Sequence record: OZ077758.1
DNA length: 44,664 nucleotides
Source: a phage
Reading direction: 5' to 3' (one strand)
The notes under the pieces were generated by a model. That model saw nothing but the letters and a program-made list of their open reading frames with translations. It searched no databases and was not told the DNA's origin. Made by a program: the position numbers and the translations under genes. Positions 32,697 to 39,323 of this stretch are shown here, one piece after another (within the stretch, counting starts at the first letter, position 1; every line of letters starts with the position of its first letter).

Positions 32697-33476
32697 TTAA
32701 CGGCGGCGACGTTTACGTGGCGCTTCGTCTTCGTCGTCGTCCTCATCTTCGTCATCGCGTGGCTTACGACGTTTGCGAGGTTTTTCATCTTCCTCATCGT
32801 CGTCGTCATCGCGGCGCTTGGATTTCTTGGACTTGCGCGGCTTGTCATCATCATCGTCATCACGACGTTTTGACTTTTTGGACTTGCGCGGTGCTTCGTC
32901 TTCGTCGTCGTTGTCCAGGTCTTCATCGGAGCAAGAAGACCCGCCACCTCCGAAGGCTTCGCCGTCTTCACGGAATCGCAGACCCAGCAAGCCAGCACCG
33001 AGACCCTTGCCGTTGGTATTGTTCCATGCCCAAATATCAAGGGACACGTTGCAATAACAACCGGAGTAGATCTCCTGGCCTTCAATCTCGTCGCCGTCGA
33101 TGGTCAGACCTTGTTCAGTCTGCTTCTCGCCGAGTGACGTTTGAATGATTGGTTGTTTGAACGATTTGGCGTTGATATACAACATGCCTTCGAATTCTTC
33201 GGTTACTTCATCGCGTTCGTCGCCGTCGCGAACTGCACATTCCTTAGAATCCTGGGCGTAGTGGCGGTCCATCCACTTATCGGCATTCTTCTCGGATTTC
33301 AGCTTATCGGTGAGCACTGCGCGCGCTGCCGCTTCCACTTTGTCCACCTGCGGATCTTCTTTATCAAGAAGAATCACGGCACGGTATGCCGGTTTTTGTC
33401 CATCCTGTTTAGGGGTGTCACGTTCCCAAATTTTCAGGAAGCATACGCGCACATTTTTCAGGTTGACTTTAGCCAT
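32697..33476 (-). CDS. putative ssDNA-binding protein (DUF2815-like) with charged repeat tail
   Basis: 259 aa from ATG 33476 (RBS GAGGA); N-terminus MAKVNLKNVRV; C-terminal 70 aa are alternating poly-Asp/Glu and Lys/Arg blocks; position next to Cas4-like nuclease and polymerase. Confidence 0.5.
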   Translation of the reverse strand: MAKVNLKNVRVCFLKIWERDTPKQDGQKPAYRAVILLDKEDPQVDKVEAAARAVLTDKLKSEKNADKWMDRHYAQDSKECAVRDGDERDEVTEEFEGMLYINAKSFKQPIIQTSLGEKQTEQGLTIDGDEIEGQEIYSGCYCNVSLDIWAWNNTNGKGLGAGLLGLRFREDGEAFGGGGSSCSDEDLDNDDEDEAPRKSKKSKRRDDDDDDKPRKSKKSKRRDDDDDEEDEKPRKRRKPRDDEDEDDDEDEAPRKRRRR

Positions 33477-33541
33477 TTTCCAATTCCTCATTTTCACATG
33501 TATCGGGGTTATTGGAAGCCACCCCGTTCGGCTTGGTTGCT

Positions 33542-35232: not shown

Positions 35233-35420
35233 TATTCCACCCTTGAAAATTGAGCAATGTAATAATCGTGTTCGACATTGGCCCGCTTCGCGGCATTGTT
35301 CATGGTAGCCGCCAGTCCTCGAGCTTGCATCCAGCAGCAATTCCAGTTTTGATTCATAACAATTTCTGGTTGCTCGTCGCCGGTAATACGGCAACGAAAT
35401 AAAACAAAGAATATAGCCAT
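35232..35420 (-). CDS. hypothetical protein
   Basis: 62-aa ORF coupled to neighbours. Confidence 0.35.
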   Translation of the reverse strand: MAIFFVLFRCRITGDEQPEIVMNQNWNCCWMQARGLAATMNNAAKRANVEHDYYIAQFSRVE

Positions 35421-35672
35421 TTATTTTGTCTCCCAGCGGTCAATTGTTTTTGCTTCGGATGCAACTGCGAAGCGAACATATTCCAGATTGGAATCCGCCC
35501 AAATATAAAAGTCGGGGTTAGTAAAGGTGGTGCGCTTAATTTGCGCGGGGGTGTTACGGCGTTTATCTATTACGGCAACGCGTGACTGAAAGCTGCCGAT
35601 GCGTTCGAATAGCCAATAGTACGGGCGCTGGTCGCGGGAGTCCACCGCCTCGATTAGCGTGAAGCGTGCCAT
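35421..35672 (-). CDS. hypothetical protein
   Basis: 83-aa ORF, RBS GAGGA, preceded by hairpin GGCCCGC..GCGGGCC. Confidence 0.45.
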   Translation of the reverse strand: MARFTLIEAVDSRDQRPYYWLFERIGSFQSRVAVIDKRRNTPAQIKRTTFTNPDFYIWADSNLEYVRFAVASEAKTIDRWETK

Positions 35673-35850
35673 TGTCTCGTCCTCTAAAAATAGGCCCGCA
35701 GATTAGCGGGCCGGAATATATTAATCTTCACCGCCGAGTTGTCTATAAACCTCGTCCGGGTCGTCGCCTCTTTCTTCGCAGAAGGCGGTGAACGCCGCCC
35801 AATTTTCTGCTATGAAATCGAGCATGATTCGCATTTCATAGTCCATGATA

Positions 35851-36363
35851 TTAATCTTCCAGTTCGAAATAGGTTTCGACGATTTCTTTTAGCTCTGTGT
35901 GGAAGTCTTCGACGTCGTCATCTTCCAGCTTGGCGATTGATTTGATCTCGAACGATTCCAGCAGGTCGTCGAATTCGTCGTTCGCATCGTCGTCATCGCC
36001 ACCGGCGATAATAGCGGCATACTGTTTGATTTCGTCGCGCATCTCCGCCAGCGGATCGGCATCTTTCTTACCTTTGCCTTTCGCCGGTGCTTTCTTAGCC
36101 TTAGCCGGTTTTTCGTCTTCGGCGTCTTCGTCGTCGTCATCTTCTACGACTTCTTTTTTGGCCTTACCTTTCGCCGGTGCTTTTTTAGTTTTCGCCGGTG
36201 CTTCGTCTTCGGCGTCGTCATCTTCTACGACTTCTTTTTTGGCCTTAGACGGCTTCTTGTCTTCCTGCTTACCAACGGCAGCGCCAACGGTTTCATAATG
36301 TTTAGCGATGGTTTCCAGTGCTACTACGCCGCGAGTGATCAGGTTTACGATTTGCTCAAACAT
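35851..36363 (-). CDS. acidic repeat protein, first gene of leftward early operon
   Basis: 170 aa from ATG 36363 (RBS GGAGA); two tandem ~23-aa repeats (KKEVVEDDD.EDE.PAK.KKAPAKGK) from a ~69-bp nucleotide repeat; poly-Asp C-terminal half. Confidence 0.6.
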   Translation of the reverse strand: MFEQIVNLITRGVVALETIAKHYETVGAAVGKQEDKKPSKAKKEVVEDDDAEDEAPAKTKKAPAKGKAKKEVVEDDDDEDAEDEKPAKAKKAPAKGKGKKDADPLAEMRDEIKQYAAIIAGGDDDDANDEFDDLLESFEIKSIAKLEDDDVEDFHTELKEIVETYFELED

Positions 36364-36559
36364 GGTACATCTCCGATTGGTTAAGTTTAGGTGTCGGCAG
36401 TTAACTTCGTCGGTGGCCTTAACATATTGCCAGGTTACGCGTTCTCCCGTTCGGGTAGTGGACCTGGTTATATAATCACGGTTGGGAATCCTGACACTTC
36501 GATCCGGCCCCTGCGTTGCCCCTCTCCAGTTTGCGTCCTGCATCCTGTCGACGGAGTGA

Positions 36560-36589
36560 ATAATAGATTGGTTGCAGGATGGGTGTCAA
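36560..36589 (-). promoter_or_regulatory. strong sigma70-like early promoter (leftward)
   Basis: minus strand TTGACA - 18 bp - TATTAT with GCAACCAAT in the spacer next to the -10. Confidence 0.55.
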
Positions 36590-36600
36590 CAACTAATTTC

Positions 36601-36635
36601 AAAAAAAAAAGCGCCGAGGCAAAATGCGACGGCGC
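36601..36635 (-). terminator. rho-independent terminator (minus strand) insulating divergent early region
   Basis: + strand A10 followed by GCGCCG-N13-CGGCGC; on minus strand this is a hairpin followed by T10. Confidence 0.6.
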
Positions 36636-36706
36636 TAACCAATAAGAGACAATGAGACGGGAATTATTATTACACGCGTGCGCGCCCGTTTCAATATCCA
36701 AAGGAT

Positions 36707-36753
36707 TTGACACCGTGCGGTTTTGGGTGTAGTTTCGTTGGTCATTAACCAAC
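36707..36753 (+). promoter_or_regulatory. rightward early promoter with palindromic operator at transcription start
   Basis: TTGACA (36707..36712) - 17 bp - TAGTTT, followed by palindrome GTTGGT-CATTA-ACCAAC (36737..36753) and RBS GAGGG. Confidence 0.5.
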
Positions 36754-36766
36754 TGAGGGCAGAGCA

Positions 36767-37096
36767 ATGAATGTAAACGACGCAATCGAAATGTTAACGA
36801 AGACTGTTTGCAGTGAGACAAGCCGGTCATGGGCATACACCGATGCCGTGGGGGCTGTGTTATTTGAAATCGAACGACTGCGGCTTACCGAAAAAGAATT
36901 GCGCGCCAGGCTGGAACTACTCAACGGTACAGCAGCAAGCAAGCTGCAAAAACACAATGAAGAAATGGAAGAATACAAAAAGCAGGTTATCCGTTTGCGC
37001 GCCGAGGGTAAATCATGGGCGATGATTGCCGAGTTGACCGGAATTAATCAGAGCACAGTGCGCTCCTGGGTACGCAATAATAAAACTTCTAAGTAA
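36767..37096 (+). CDS. helix-turn-helix DNA-binding protein (putative regulator)
   Basis: 109 aa; C-terminal HTH-like KSWAMIAELTGINQSTVRSWVRNN; first gene of rightward early operon. Confidence 0.6.
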   Translation: MNVNDAIEMLTKTVCSETSRSWAYTDAVGAVLFEIERLRLTEKELRARLELLNGTAASKLQKHNEEMEEYKKQVIRLRAEGKSWAMIAELTGINQSTVRSWVRNNKTSK

Positions 37097-37106
37097 GGCC
37101 ACGGCA

Positions 37107-39323
37107 ATGAGCTTGATTAAATTCGCTGTAACAAAACCCGCTAAAAAAGGCGAAAAAGCCAGGGCGGAGAACTTCCAGATGACGACCGATGAGTTTTTCG
37201 AATTTATCAAAGATGCGAAAGAAATCTCCTCGGTGCATATCAACAAGACGGAAGATAAAGCCGAGTATGCGCGCCGCAAGCGTAAGGCCGATGGCATCGT
37301 GGCGTATACCAGTGACGGATTGCGTCGTAAGACCAGTGCGGTGGACCGCTCGATCCTGTTCTTTGATATTGACCGCACCGACACCCGCACCCTGCGCCGC
37401 TGCCGTAAGGCGTTCATCGACGCGGGTCTGGAACACGTATTTCACACCACCACCGGCGACCGCCACCCGCTGAAGGGCGGCACGCGTTGCGCCCGTTTCC
37501 TGGTGCTCACTGACAAGCCTGTACCGGCTGAAGACCTGGGCCGCGTCCAGTATGCACTATTACACCAACTGGGTCTGTCAGATGTGGACTTCGACGATTG
37601 CACGAAAGACACAAACCGCCTGATGTACCTGCCACACCAGCAGTCCGTTATTAAGTGCCACTATGGCAAGCGCGCCAATGTGCGTCGTCTACTCCGTCGG
37701 GCGGACAAGCTGGGGGTGGAAAAAGAGGAAGTACGACGCGAACTGACCCAGGGCGATGACGGCGTGGCGGACGGTATTCTGGATTGGTGCTTCCAGGCAG
37801 GATTCGAACCGCTGTCGTCCGGTCGTGGCTATGAAGTACCGTGCCCGAACGAACACCTGCACAGCGGCGAAGGGTCCACCGCGATCATGGTTAAGGATGG
37901 CGAGATCCGTTTCAAGTGTATGCACACCGGCAACGAGTGTTGCTCGGAACTGAACAGACACCAGCACCTGGCGCTACGTCTTATCGGTATCCCGGACCAC
38001 CTGAACGTAGAACCGCACAACATGTCACGTAAGCAAATTGCCGCCATCCTCCCCGGACTGGACGACGAGGAAGTGGAATCGTGCTATGAACATATCGTTG
38101 ATGCGGTCGGTGACGGCGACGAGTACGGCGGATGTACGGACGCAGACCTGGACAACGAGCCGGTTGCACTGTTCAGTAAGCACGACCCGATCATCGAGGG
38201 GTTGATTAACTTCAAATCGACCTGGTATATGGCTGGCGAATCGAACATCGGTAAATCGTTCTACGTGCTGGGACAAATGGGCGCGGTTGCCGCGGGGATT
38301 CCGTTCGGTGGTGCGAAGGTAGTCCAGTCTCATTGCTTCTATTTCGACGCGGAAGGTGGCGAAGCCTCCAACCAGCGTAAGGAAGCATTGCAGATCAAAT
38401 ATGAGCACGACCTCGACAAGCTGCACATTATAGACCTGCAATCACGCGGCTGGGATATCACCAGCAAATCCGGCTTGCGTGAAGTTATCAGCTTTATCAA
38501 CCGCACCGCTAACGGCGAACCGGTTGGCCTGGTGGCGTTCGACTCACTCAACCAGACTGTTGCGCTGCGGTCCGCCGATGCTAAGCCGTTCGACGAGAAC
38601 AACGCCAGCGATATGGGTGAAGTGGTCAAGGCGCTGAAGGCCATCGCGGAAAATACAGGCGGCAGTGCGGGCGTCATCCACCACCCGGCTAAAGGTGCGA
38701 ACGGCAGCAGAACGCCACGCGGGTCCGGCGCGCTTCATGGTGCTGTTGATTCCGCGTTCTTCCTGGAGCAACCGGACGACAACCAGCCCGGACAATTGAA
38801 CCTGTACCATGAGAAGGCACGTAACGGCATCAAGCAAGCGCCGCGCGGATTCGTCCTTCTCAAGTGCAAGGTTAAGGTGGATCTCCGCAAGTCCGAGGCG
38901 TTCGAAGCCCACCAGTCCACCAGCACCGGGCCGGACTTCGGTGATGTGGTTGCCGGTTGGGACGTCAAGCCAATTGCCTCCACGCCACGCGACGAGACTC
39001 TTTACCTCGTACCGGTCGCCCTGGCACCGTTCGCTATTGAACAGGCGAAGGCCGCGGGCAAGGCCGCAGTTAAGGAAGAGAACGCCGCGGGGCCGCGCAA
39101 CGAAAAAGAGAAAGTGCTTTATGCGGCACTGGAAAAACTGATGGAAGATAACCCGGACCATACCGGATTCAGTAAATCGGCAATTGTCCGCCAGGCTGGA
39201 CTGGCAAAAGGTGGCACATCGACGAAGGCAATCGACGATATGGTAGAGCGCGGAGTGTTAGGTTTTTATACCGATCCGCACAAAAAGGTGGCACATCGAC
39301 GAAGGCAATCGACGATATGGTAG
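37107..39323 (+). CDS. bifunctional DNA primase (AEP-type) / helicase, C-terminus altered by tandem duplication
   Basis: 738 aa; N-terminal AEP-like motifs (LFFDIDRTD, TTTGDRHP), Cys/His cluster, C-terminal RecA-fold ATPase with Walker A GESNIGKS and Walker B VAFDSL; reading frame is shifted by a 77-bp duplication near the 3' end. Confidence 0.75.
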   Translation: MSLIKFAVTKPAKKGEKARAENFQMTTDEFFEFIKDAKEISSVHINKTEDKAEYARRKRKADGIVAYTSDGLRRKTSAVDRSILFFDIDRTDTRTLRRCRKAFIDAGLEHVFHTTTGDRHPLKGGTRCARFLVLTDKPVPAEDLGRVQYALLHQLGLSDVDFDDCTKDTNRLMYLPHQQSVIKCHYGKRANVRRLLRRADKLGVEKEEVRRELTQGDDGVADGILDWCFQAGFEPLSSGRGYEVPCPNEHLHSGEGSTAIMVKDGEIRFKCMHTGNECCSELNRHQHLALRLIGIPDHLNVEPHNMSRKQIAAILPGLDDEEVESCYEHIVDAVGDGDEYGGCTDADLDNEPVALFSKHDPIIEGLINFKSTWYMAGESNIGKSFYVLGQMGAVAAGIPFGGAKVVQSHCFYFDAEGGEASNQRKEALQIKYEHDLDKLHIIDLQSRGWDITSKSGLREVISFINRTANGEPVGLVAFDSLNQTVALRSADAKPFDENNASDMGEVVKALKAIAENTGGSAGVIHHPAKGANGSRTPRGSGALHGAVDSAFFLEQPDDNQPGQLNLYHEKARNGIKQAPRGFVLLKCKVKVDLRKSEAFEAHQSTSTGPDFGDVVAGWDVKPIASTPRDETLYLVPVALAPFAIEQAKAAGKAAVKEENAAGPRNEKEKVLYAALEKLMEDNPDHTGFSKSAIVRQAGLAKGGTSTKAIDDMVERGVLGFYTDPHKKVAHRRRQSTIW

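Follow-up and report, generated by a model that had tools for sequence, protein, structure and literature searches.

A strongly acidic core protein of the Dhillonvirus replication module, its structured leader RNA and a possible role as a nucleic-acid-like decoy

Phage sequence record OZ077758.1, analyzed here as one window of 44,664 nucleotides (nt), carries on its minus strand a gene for a strongly acidic protein of 170 amino acids (aa), which an earlier prediction made from the DNA letters had likened to the DNA-mimic anti-restriction protein Ocr of phage T7. Conservation and gene order mark this acidic gene as a vertically inherited, syntenic core gene of the replication/recombination module in Dhillonvirus and Guernseyvirinae phages, not a shuffled accessory gene. 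Its product, built of an N-terminal helix, a disordered tether and an acidic three-helix head, has no relatives of known function in the databases searched. The observation behind the original prediction was largely right, and its looser form, in which a non-enzymatic, strongly acidic protein could occupy a DNA-binding surface, stays our best guess; the specific analogy with Ocr fell away, and the mechanism we propose instead is one that we infer. By open reading frame (ORF) map and similarity search the window amounts to an essentially complete Dhillonvirus genome of 44.7 kb: a region of 1.7 kb that includes the acidic gene is 97% identical to Escherichia phage welsh and matches 176 phage records, nearly all of them Dhillonvirus. 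Plus-strand structural genes run to ~23.8 kb, followed by a leftward replication/recombination block and by a rightward block that opens with a helix-turn-helix gene and a primase-helicase gene.

The strongest evidence for core status comes from 80 viral contigs gathered through the DUF2800/PD-(D/E)XK nuclease of this module alone (44-99% identity) and searched with hidden Markov models (HMMs) of the N-terminal helix and of the head. The acidic gene lies upstream of the nuclease on the same strand in 77 of the 80, and the other three contigs end before that point. In distant phages it follows a small divergent DNA-binding gene and adjoins the primase-helicase gene; downstream come the nuclease, a protein of gp2.5/Enc34-like type that binds single-stranded DNA (an SSB) and, where the locus reaches that far, PolA and SNF2. 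Across these distant phages the acidic protein is 35-43% identical overall and ~59-61% where the C-terminal domain alone was aligned, and the same comparison gives 44% for the primase-helicase, 46-50% for the nuclease, 45% for the SSB and 60% for PolA. By these figures the acidic gene diverges at about the rate of the primase-helicase, nuclease and SSB genes.

The family is narrow and lacks known relatives. Its sole family match is PHROG 3127, of unknown function (E=3.3e-53, residues 1-170 of 170), with 179 homologs at E<=1e-3 whose lengths as called range from 99 to 239 aa among the best 120 of the 179. Searches of Pfam, NCBIfam and PADLOC with the acidic protein returned composition noise and no known domain, and neither a catalytic nor a known domain was found in Pfam, PHROGs, NCBIfam, PADLOC or the PDB. 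When 1.84 billion representative proteins were searched exhaustively with an HMM, just 38 clusters came back; all share this architecture, and in none is it joined to a further domain that would be informative. With the C-domain profile, a word-indexed search was swamped by acidic words, and a search of all PDB sequences reached a lowest E of 0.37 with no Ocr chain; a fold search of the PDB with the acidic bundle gave generic helical-bundle matches only. In the phage collection searched, about 650 records hold a family member: 155 are of Dhillonvirus type, 484 of Jerseyvirus/Kagunavirus type and 17 of Cornellvirus type (Salmonella phages). The family extends across Dhillonvirus and Guernseyvirinae, in hundreds of phages of E. 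coli and Salmonella. Foldseek against BFVD found the '13.88 kDa late protein' of Salmonella phage MB78 (Q9T1Z8; E=1.2e-3, 28% identity) and Gp46 of Edwardsiella phage eiAU. Homology to the MB78-type protein is borne out by both HMMs, which match the syntenic ORF of this type in nuclease-bearing loci; the same name has been inherited by that ORF type in several Jerseyvirus and Kagunavirus (Guernseyvirinae) records, and the deposited annotations examined assign the family no function.

Several published Dhillonvirus proteins were considered as candidates for the acidic protein and rejected, each being a different gene. The anti-Tmn protein of Dhillonvirus is ORF35 and contains a beta sheet; Ksap1, the Avs2 trigger, has 74 aa and is encoded between a methylase and a phosphatase; the trigger of Retron-Eco8 is the SSB; escape from Borvo maps to the DNA polymerase; and the RAZR trigger is the portal protein.

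The gene itself is as predicted: the minus-strand ORF starts at ATG 36363 and stops at 35853..35851, a GGAG motif stands 7 nt upstream of the ATG, and annotations of the near-identical phages welsh, PTXU06 and jat use the same start codon. A longer in-frame ORF of 230 aa from ATG 36543 was rejected as the real gene because that ATG falls in a ~140-nt leader stretch (discussed below) that is cleanly missing from 4 of 16 Dhillonvirus loci. The predicted strong acidity is equally clear, with 51 Asp/Glu against 28 Lys/Arg residues, a net charge of -23 and an isoelectric point of 4.43. Alignments of close and distant homologs and two AlphaFold2 runs agree on three modules (Table 1). The N-terminal helix is the best-conserved part, with R11, V13, A15, E17 and A20 invariant in 36 sequences whose identity goes down to 25%. 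AlphaFold2 places it at residues 2-27 with a predicted local distance difference test (pLDDT) score of about 60, and its heptad-like hydrophobic stripe (F2-V6-I9-V13-L16-A20-Y23; hydrophobic moment 0.52) suggests self-association or docking. One family member, P0160, has another N-terminus (FTIGDLLALLADFTPEEVRDALAA) in place of the usual helix, which looks like a helix-extended-helix or SAP-like motif.

Residues 28-102 are predicted to be disordered (pLDDT below 50), and the middle third of the protein (residues 32-101) is charge-balanced, with 22 acidic and 21 basic residues. The tandem repeat noted in the original prediction is real, whereas its unit length is not 23 aa: the units have 27 aa (AKKEVVEDDDAEDEAPAKTKKAPAKGK) and 30 aa (AKKEVVEDDDDEDAEDEKPAKAKKAPAKGK), and the corresponding DNA (36247..36152 and 36166..36062) is 81% identical; Tandem Repeats Finder gave this repeat no score. 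Within 19 Dhillonvirus loci the whole protein varies from 142 to 180 aa through gain and loss of repeats. Across family representatives the linker, delimited by fixed cuts that remove the first 28 and last 66 residues, measures 21-118 aa, the longest containing a second copy of the C-domain. Its sequence and length vary freely; as a rule, family members mix acidic with basic blocks there, and most keep a lysine patch directly before the head.

The original prediction held a nucleoid or chaperone role to be as likely as DNA mimicry. The protein would then be a nucleoid- or chaperone-type polyampholyte, in which blocks rich in Lys, Ala and Pro would bind DNA or RNA in the manner of histone H1 tails and the acidic parts would chaperone basic proteins or modulate H-NS or HU. 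The PAKKAPAKGK-type repeats and the alternation of acidic and basic blocks speak for it, as do the presence of some basic block in all family linkers and of a lysine-rich patch even in the shortest members (P0082 and P0097). However, neither the sequence nor the length nor the composition of the linker is conserved, and in P0097 the stretch from helix to C-domain is down to about 15-20 residues; what is conserved is the helix and the acidic bundle rather than the basic repeats, and the net charge is always negative. We consider such a role unlikely.

The C-terminal head is confidently predicted as a three-helix bundle (pLDDT 84-94), and residues 102-170, with 26 acidic and 5 basic residues, hold nearly all of the protein's net charge. 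Its alignment displays an invariant hydrophobic core and the motifs GD.D...D.F.DLL and KL.D.DV..F. Acidity is a family-wide property: the C-domain carries a net charge of -4 to -21 and the whole protein one of -6 to -23, negative in every member, with the Dhillonvirus form at the acidic extreme. A poly-Asp C-terminus, as originally described, does not exist; the protein ends in ELED, and its aspartate runs (DDDD at 123-126 and DDD at 148-150) sit in loops of the folded three-helix domain. Some members (P0129, P0130 and P0137) have two copies of the acidic head.

In overall layout the protein resembles TonB/TolA or phi29 p16.7, which likewise combine an N-terminal helix, a long, variable, low-complexity spacer and a small C-terminal domain, and distant members of the acidic family have Glu-Pro and Lys-Pro runs like those of the TonB spacer. 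Unlike TonB/TolA-type anchors, its N-helix carries R11, E17 and K21 and so is not transmembrane. NCBIfam TonB models score 14-15 bits against cut-offs of 265-315, a likeness of composition only.

The acidic gene appears to be expressed as a unit of its own. The prediction that it lies behind the strongest-looking promoter held up, TTGACA-18-TATTAT being the only 11/12 match to the consensus within the whole window, and this promoter is kept in 16 Dhillonvirus loci. Transcription is predicted to start near 36553; the promoter lies about 190 nt from the ATG, and the standing of the acidic gene as a first early gene is read from this promoter. An intrinsic terminator-like hairpin at 35685..35712 closes the unit ahead of the remaining operon, and a terminator also stands 3' of the homologous gene in Jerseyvirus Ent1 and in contig L024. 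Termination directly after the unit fits a product of which more is needed than of the enzymes encoded further downstream. Together, the promoter, the 160-nt structured leader, the acidic gene, an optional mini-ORF and the terminator would allow host RNA polymerase to produce one small non-enzymatic protein at high output.

Being small, acidic, helical and, by its host-type promoter, the first to be made, the protein could also be a transcription factor that acts on host RNA polymerase or sigma-70 as appropriator or inhibitor and drives the switch from early to later genes, as T4 AsiA, T7 Gp2 and sigma-70 region 1.1 bind these targets. Region 1.1, an acidic bundle of three helices, fills the channel in which RNA polymerase holds DNA, and by analogy the phage head may be compared with it as a compact acidic three-helix bundle on a flexible charged linker, here too a proposed DNA surrogate; region 1.1, by contrast, is part of a large sigma factor and shares no detectable similarity with the phage protein. 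The acidic gene also adjoins a divergent helix-turn-helix regulator. On the other hand, no fold match rises above noise, with RNA polymerase-related chains appearing only at Foldseek E>1.9, and the linkage is to replication genes rather than to a late operon. We rate this role as improbable.

We tentatively favor, as a possibility that still falls short of being probable, a stoichiometric, tethered and perhaps oligomeric acidic head which, as decoy or adaptor, attaches to a basic surface meant for DNA. This reading is supported because the bundle is acidic, no known domain is present, the gene is linked to the module in 77 of 80 contigs, the unit has the best promoter and a terminator, and acidity extends across the family. 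In such a mechanism the amphipathic N-terminal helix would mediate self-association or docking, the charge-balanced flexible tether would tolerate any length in the observed range, and the head would act as a nucleic-acid-like decoy or adaptor on a protein that handles phage replication or recombination intermediates. The likeliest target would be a host protein that processes DNA ends or belongs to the nucleoid, RecBCD coming first among the candidates; restriction enzymes seem unlikely.

A 2026 preprint (bioRxiv 10.64898/2026.07.10.737580) reports that P2 OLD protects robustly against Dhillonviruses and identifies as its protein triggers lambda Gam and T7 gp5.9, both RecBCD inhibitors; it also names single-stranded DNA hairpins at the replication origin as an OLD activator. 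No recognizable Gam or gp5.9 homolog was found in these phages, the 'Gam'-labeled 109-aa neighbor of the acidic gene being a helix-turn-helix protein. That the phages are reported as OLD-sensitive and lack a recognizable Gam makes it attractive, on circumstantial grounds, to place an acidic decoy for RecBCD in front of the recombination genes. Like lambda Gam and T7 gp5.9, the acidic protein would be an acidic helical protein made early and encoded with the phage's own recombination genes, and, like lambda, Dhillonviruses are OLD-sensitive. By Pfam, PDB profile and fold searches it has no similarity in sequence or fold to either of them.

Several observations weigh against a decoy, some of them against RecBCD as its partner. 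Sequence and fold searches gave no match to any DNA mimic, and a three-helix bundle is too generic a shape to indicate mimicry. The conserved acidic residues occupy fixed loop positions and could equally serve metal binding or a specific protein contact, while K95 and K97, present in at least 90% of the alignment sequences, form a lysine-rich patch beside the head that a pure mimic does not explain. Chi (GCTGGTGG) occurs six times in the window against 1.4 ± 1.3 expected, a count reached by 1 of 100 shuffles; five sites are on the plus strand (2674, 7513, 16189, 22023 and 42484) and one on the minus strand (38917). This enrichment, unexpected if RecBCD is switched off, looks as if phage DNA still meets active RecBCD. 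The BASEL 2021 data give only weak Old effects on Bas14-16, with an efficiency of plating (EOP) of 0.07-1.0. Finally, strict co-inheritance with replication genes would fit a positive role in the replisome just as well.

That last reading, of an accessory factor of the phage replisome or recombination machinery, is doubtful in our estimation and little less likely than the decoy. The N-helix would dock on, or oligomerize with, the primase-helicase, the gp2.5-like SSB, PolA or the PD-(D/E)XK nuclease, or serve as a membrane tether, and the acidic head would touch a second component, by analogy with the acidic tails through which T7 gp2.5 and E. coli SSB recruit partners. Consistent with such a role are co-occurrence with the module in all 77 assessable contigs, the fixed place between primase-helicase and nuclease, divergence comparable to that of the module enzymes, conservation that peaks in the N-helix (five invariant residues in 36 sequences), as for a co-evolving docking motif, and a tether that tolerates large changes in length, with a few members carrying two heads. 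Against this, domain and fold searches revealed no similarity to known loaders, clamps or organizers, and the gene has the genome's strongest promoter and its own terminator. Moreover, the same promoter-leader cassette precedes unrelated small accessory-looking genes elsewhere, which hints at a host-directed early function.

The specific claim that the protein is an Ocr-type DNA mimic, blocking type I restriction-modification and BREX as Ocr or ArdA would, found no support. The resemblance is easily stated: like T7 Ocr (gp0.3) and ArdA/KlcA, the protein is small, very acidic, all-helical and non-enzymatic, and its gene is the first one served by a strong promoter of host type. Ocr forms a rigid 117-aa dimer and lacks basic or disordered segments, whereas in the phage protein a disordered tether rich in lysine joins a helix to a small head of three helices. 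Neither Pfam above noise nor the PDB profile and fold searches disclosed similarity to Ocr, ArdA or KlcA, and the elongated all-helical dimer by which Ocr mimics bent B-form DNA has no counterpart here.

Relatives of this phage, in contrast to a phage protected by Ocr, stay sensitive to a type I system. In the BASEL data, those Dhillonviruses that have one or two EcoCFT_I sites are restricted by this type I system about 100- to 600-fold. Bas15 (PaulFeyerabend), which carries a homolog of the acidic gene, plates on EcoCFT_I with an EOP of 0.006-0.014 in four experiments despite having a single EcoCFT_I site; Bas17, with two sites, gives 0.0016 in one experiment, and Bas14 and Bas16, with none, are unaffected. 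In Bas17 the leader occupies the syntenic position under an annotated ORF, from which the acidic gene itself may be presumed there. The BASEL data also describe these Dhillonviruses as heavily restricted by type II and III systems, and Bas15, with one EcoKI site, as plating at 0.7-1.0 on EcoKI, which would favor an Ocr-like activity, though one site may be too few. The window has no EcoKI site (AACN6GTGC) against 8.0 ± 2.7 expected, and the BASEL Dhillonviruses have 0-1 EcoKI and 0-2 EcoCFT_I sites. These counts indicate that type I sites are avoided, a need expected of a phage without a type I inhibitor and an alternative strategy to having one. Given also that the acidic gene belongs to the core of the module and is no accessory gene, an Ocr- or ArdA-type function is very improbable, and acidity combined with first position proves a weak predictor of it.

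The second main element of the unit is its leader. Comparative analysis identifies a stretch of about 160 nt between promoter and gene as a new, well-supported structured RNA without an Rfam 15 family (Table 1). Within Dhillonvirus, ~140 nt of it are nearly invariant in the 12 of 16 loci that have it, while flanking coding DNA varies by 5-25%. Its core is 77-92% identical in the Drexlerviridae phages ityhuna and PHB17, in Murrayvirus Lumpael and in Klebsiella phage KA2-1, where it is always intergenic and runs in the same direction as the operon around it; further viral contigs carry more copies. Among 185,579 species genomes, a pattern scan gave one match, on a 42.7-kb contig of a metagenome-assembled genome, a size typical of these phage genomes.

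Compensatory changes support the helices. P6 occurs as CCAGGU/ACCUGG, CCUGGU/ACCAGG, CAUAAC/GUUAUG, CAUGAU/AUCAUG and CAUUGG/CCAAUG, P7 as CCC/GGG, CUC/GAG, GCC/GGC and CCG/CGG, and P1 as GACGGGC/GCCCGUC, GGGCGGCG/CGCCGCCC and GUCGAC/GUCGAC. A covariance model (R1) built on a hand-drawn eight-helix structure matches 27 leader copies at 165-189 bits; its match in the window spans 36556..36379, and the others include L112 839-1015, L113 2486-2661, L114 2471-2649, L115 2486-2660, L005 7080-7257 and 21 further loci. In the model alignment 90.2% of paired cells are pairs, against 30-46% when the partners are slid, 17 pairs are changed on both sides against at most 5 in controls, and the covariation score is 0.302 against at most 0.062, with none of 500 shuffles reaching it; the alignment tested was fitted to the model's own structure, so that these counts lean towards it. 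RNAalifold on the raw MAFFT alignment recovered part of the structure. Conserved G-U pairs fix the structured strand as the transcribed one. The single-sequence fold is unremarkable (z=+0.95), and the structure emerged only across phage families. Rfam 15 gave no leader match at E<=1 in 35300..37200, its only weak match being on the upstream terminator, and left the element unmatched at E<=10 in four diverse copies. A resemblance to glycine or tetrahydrofolate riboswitches (GGAGAG, ACGAAG) was not borne out by Rfam.

Leader copies travel as a cassette. Nearly every copy begins a few nt after a sigma-70 -10 hexamer, with the -35 hexamer mostly at 16-18 nt (the spacing is unclear in two copies), and each leaves 13-20 nt between its end and the following ORF's ribosome-binding site and start codon. 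The ORFs that follow are unrelated: the acidic protein, proteins of 68, 71, 120 and 313 aa, a lipoprotein-like protein of 104 aa, and others. Two 41-kb contigs (L144 and L151) have the cassette in front of a 104-105-aa ORF that starts 16 nt past the element with a lipoprotein-type signal (MKRITAIAITLAAVLGC...), and this lipoprotein could be of superinfection-exclusion type. We take the leader RNA and the acidic protein to be independent modules joined in Dhillonvirus, because the Guernseyvirinae loci that carry the acidic gene have no leader element next to it.

Like HK022 put and riboswitch-type 5' leaders, the element begins at or near position +1 of the predicted early transcript, folds into several helices, has many invariant unpaired nucleotides and stops shortly before a ribosome-binding site. 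Unlike them, it has no Rfam match and no obvious expression platform, and terminators downstream are found in about half of the copies. A terminator-like site lies within 2.5 kb downstream in 8 of 15 copies; such terminators not being universal, antitermination is no more than a possible role of the leader. That so many unpaired nucleotides are invariant suggests a specific partner, be it a ligand or a protein, and a put-like action on RNA polymerase, a role in translation or stability, or a riboswitch are possible.

Taken jointly, and again no more than tentatively, the leader would represent a new class of phage RNA in a portable cassette and its cargo here the founding member of a new family of acidic decoys that neutralize a host DNA-end or nucleoid protein. 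The cassette, with its sigma-70 promoter and often an upstream terminator, would precede unrelated small early genes in several siphovirus lineages, the leader acting as a ligand- or protein-binding regulatory RNA, for instance as a riboswitch or with RNA polymerase or the ribosome as its target, while the decoy family would be hard-wired into the replication/recombination module of Dhillonvirus and Guernseyvirinae. Many carriers are E. coli and Salmonella phages described as candidates for therapy or biocontrol, and a core, probably abundant replication-module protein without an assigned role is a gap in our grasp of host takeover. The acidic family may yield a new inhibitor against a host enzyme that handles DNA, and the leader RNA could offer a new principle of regulation, a part useful for expression and a reason why the cassette spreads between phages.

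Table 1. Features of the acidic-gene unit and its surroundings in the window (position 1 is the first letter of OZ077758.1)
Feature	Position	Strand	Basis
Structured leader RNA, about 160 nt	36393..36552	-	comparative structure, covariance model
P1 closing helix, 5' strand GTCGACAG, 3' strand CTGCCGAC	36552..36545 with 36400..36393	-	
P2	about 36541..36532	-	
P3	36522..36518 with 36417..36412	-	
P4	36516..36514 with 36480..36478	-	
P5	36511..36502 with 36495..36484	-	
P6	36467..36462 with 36435..36430	-	
P7	36458..36453 with 36448..36444	-	
Coding sequence of the 170-aa acidic protein (PHROG 3127), stop included	35851..36363	-	ORF, composition, PHROG match
Shine-Dalgarno GGAG, 7 nt 5' of ATG	36371..36374	-	read from sequence; conserved in alignment
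Residues 1-27, amphipathic N-terminal helix MFEQIVNLITRGVVALETIAKHYETVG	36283..36363	-	alignments, AlphaFold2, heptad stripe
Residues 32-101, predicted disordered polyampholyte linker with 27/30-aa tandem repeat	36061..36270	-	pLDDT, composition, repeat
Residues 103-170, predicted acidic three-helix bundle (helices 104-121, 125-137, 148-166)	35854..36057	-	AlphaFold2, composition, alignment
Sigma-70-type promoter, TTGACA (36589..36584), 18-nt spacer, TATTAT (36565..36560)	36560..36589	-	consensus scan
Intrinsic terminator-like hairpin GGCCCGC-TAATCT-GCGGGCC, then TATTTTT	35685..35712	-	hairpin scan; same terminator marked by PTXU06 annotators
Upstream terminator-like hairpin GCGCCG..CGGCGC + T10, 12 nt before -35 hexamer	36601..36635	-	read from sequence
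Optional acidic mini-ORF, 41 aa (or 37 aa), PHROG 15754, on 130-bp insertion/deletion	35721..35846	-	PHROG match, locus comparison

Of 19 Dhillonvirus loci, 6 have the optional mini-ORF, which falls in the gap from acidic gene to terminator; the remainder show a spacer of 47 or 48 bp. On the other side of the unit, a promoter-like site with an extended TG (TTGAAA-17-AATAAT, 36694..36666 on the minus strand) lies ~25 nt ahead of the upstream terminator-like hairpin. The pair could yield an RNA of ~55-60 nt; alternatively, the hairpin's role may be no more than to insulate the main promoter. The stretch 36601..36694 is 97% conserved among Dhillonviruses, and three other promoter-leader cassettes have a terminator 50-62 nt upstream.

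The divergent 109-aa gene (36767..37096, plus strand) scores as a helix-turn-helix protein (HTH_23, Sigma70_r4_2) and as nothing else. Its names in public records vary between 'transposase', 'resolvase' and 'DNA recombination nuclease inhibitor gamma', and the 'Gam' label looks like a propagated misannotation. A second acidic stretch rich in GAT/GAC, with DNA similarity to the acidic gene, lies at 32719..32927 on the minus strand inside a 266-aa ORF (32697..33497); this ORF is an SSB-like gene whose homologs in related loci carry an Enc34_ssDNA-bd domain, and the SSB of the related phages SECphi4, SECphi6 and SECphi18 is the protein reported to trigger Retron-Eco8.

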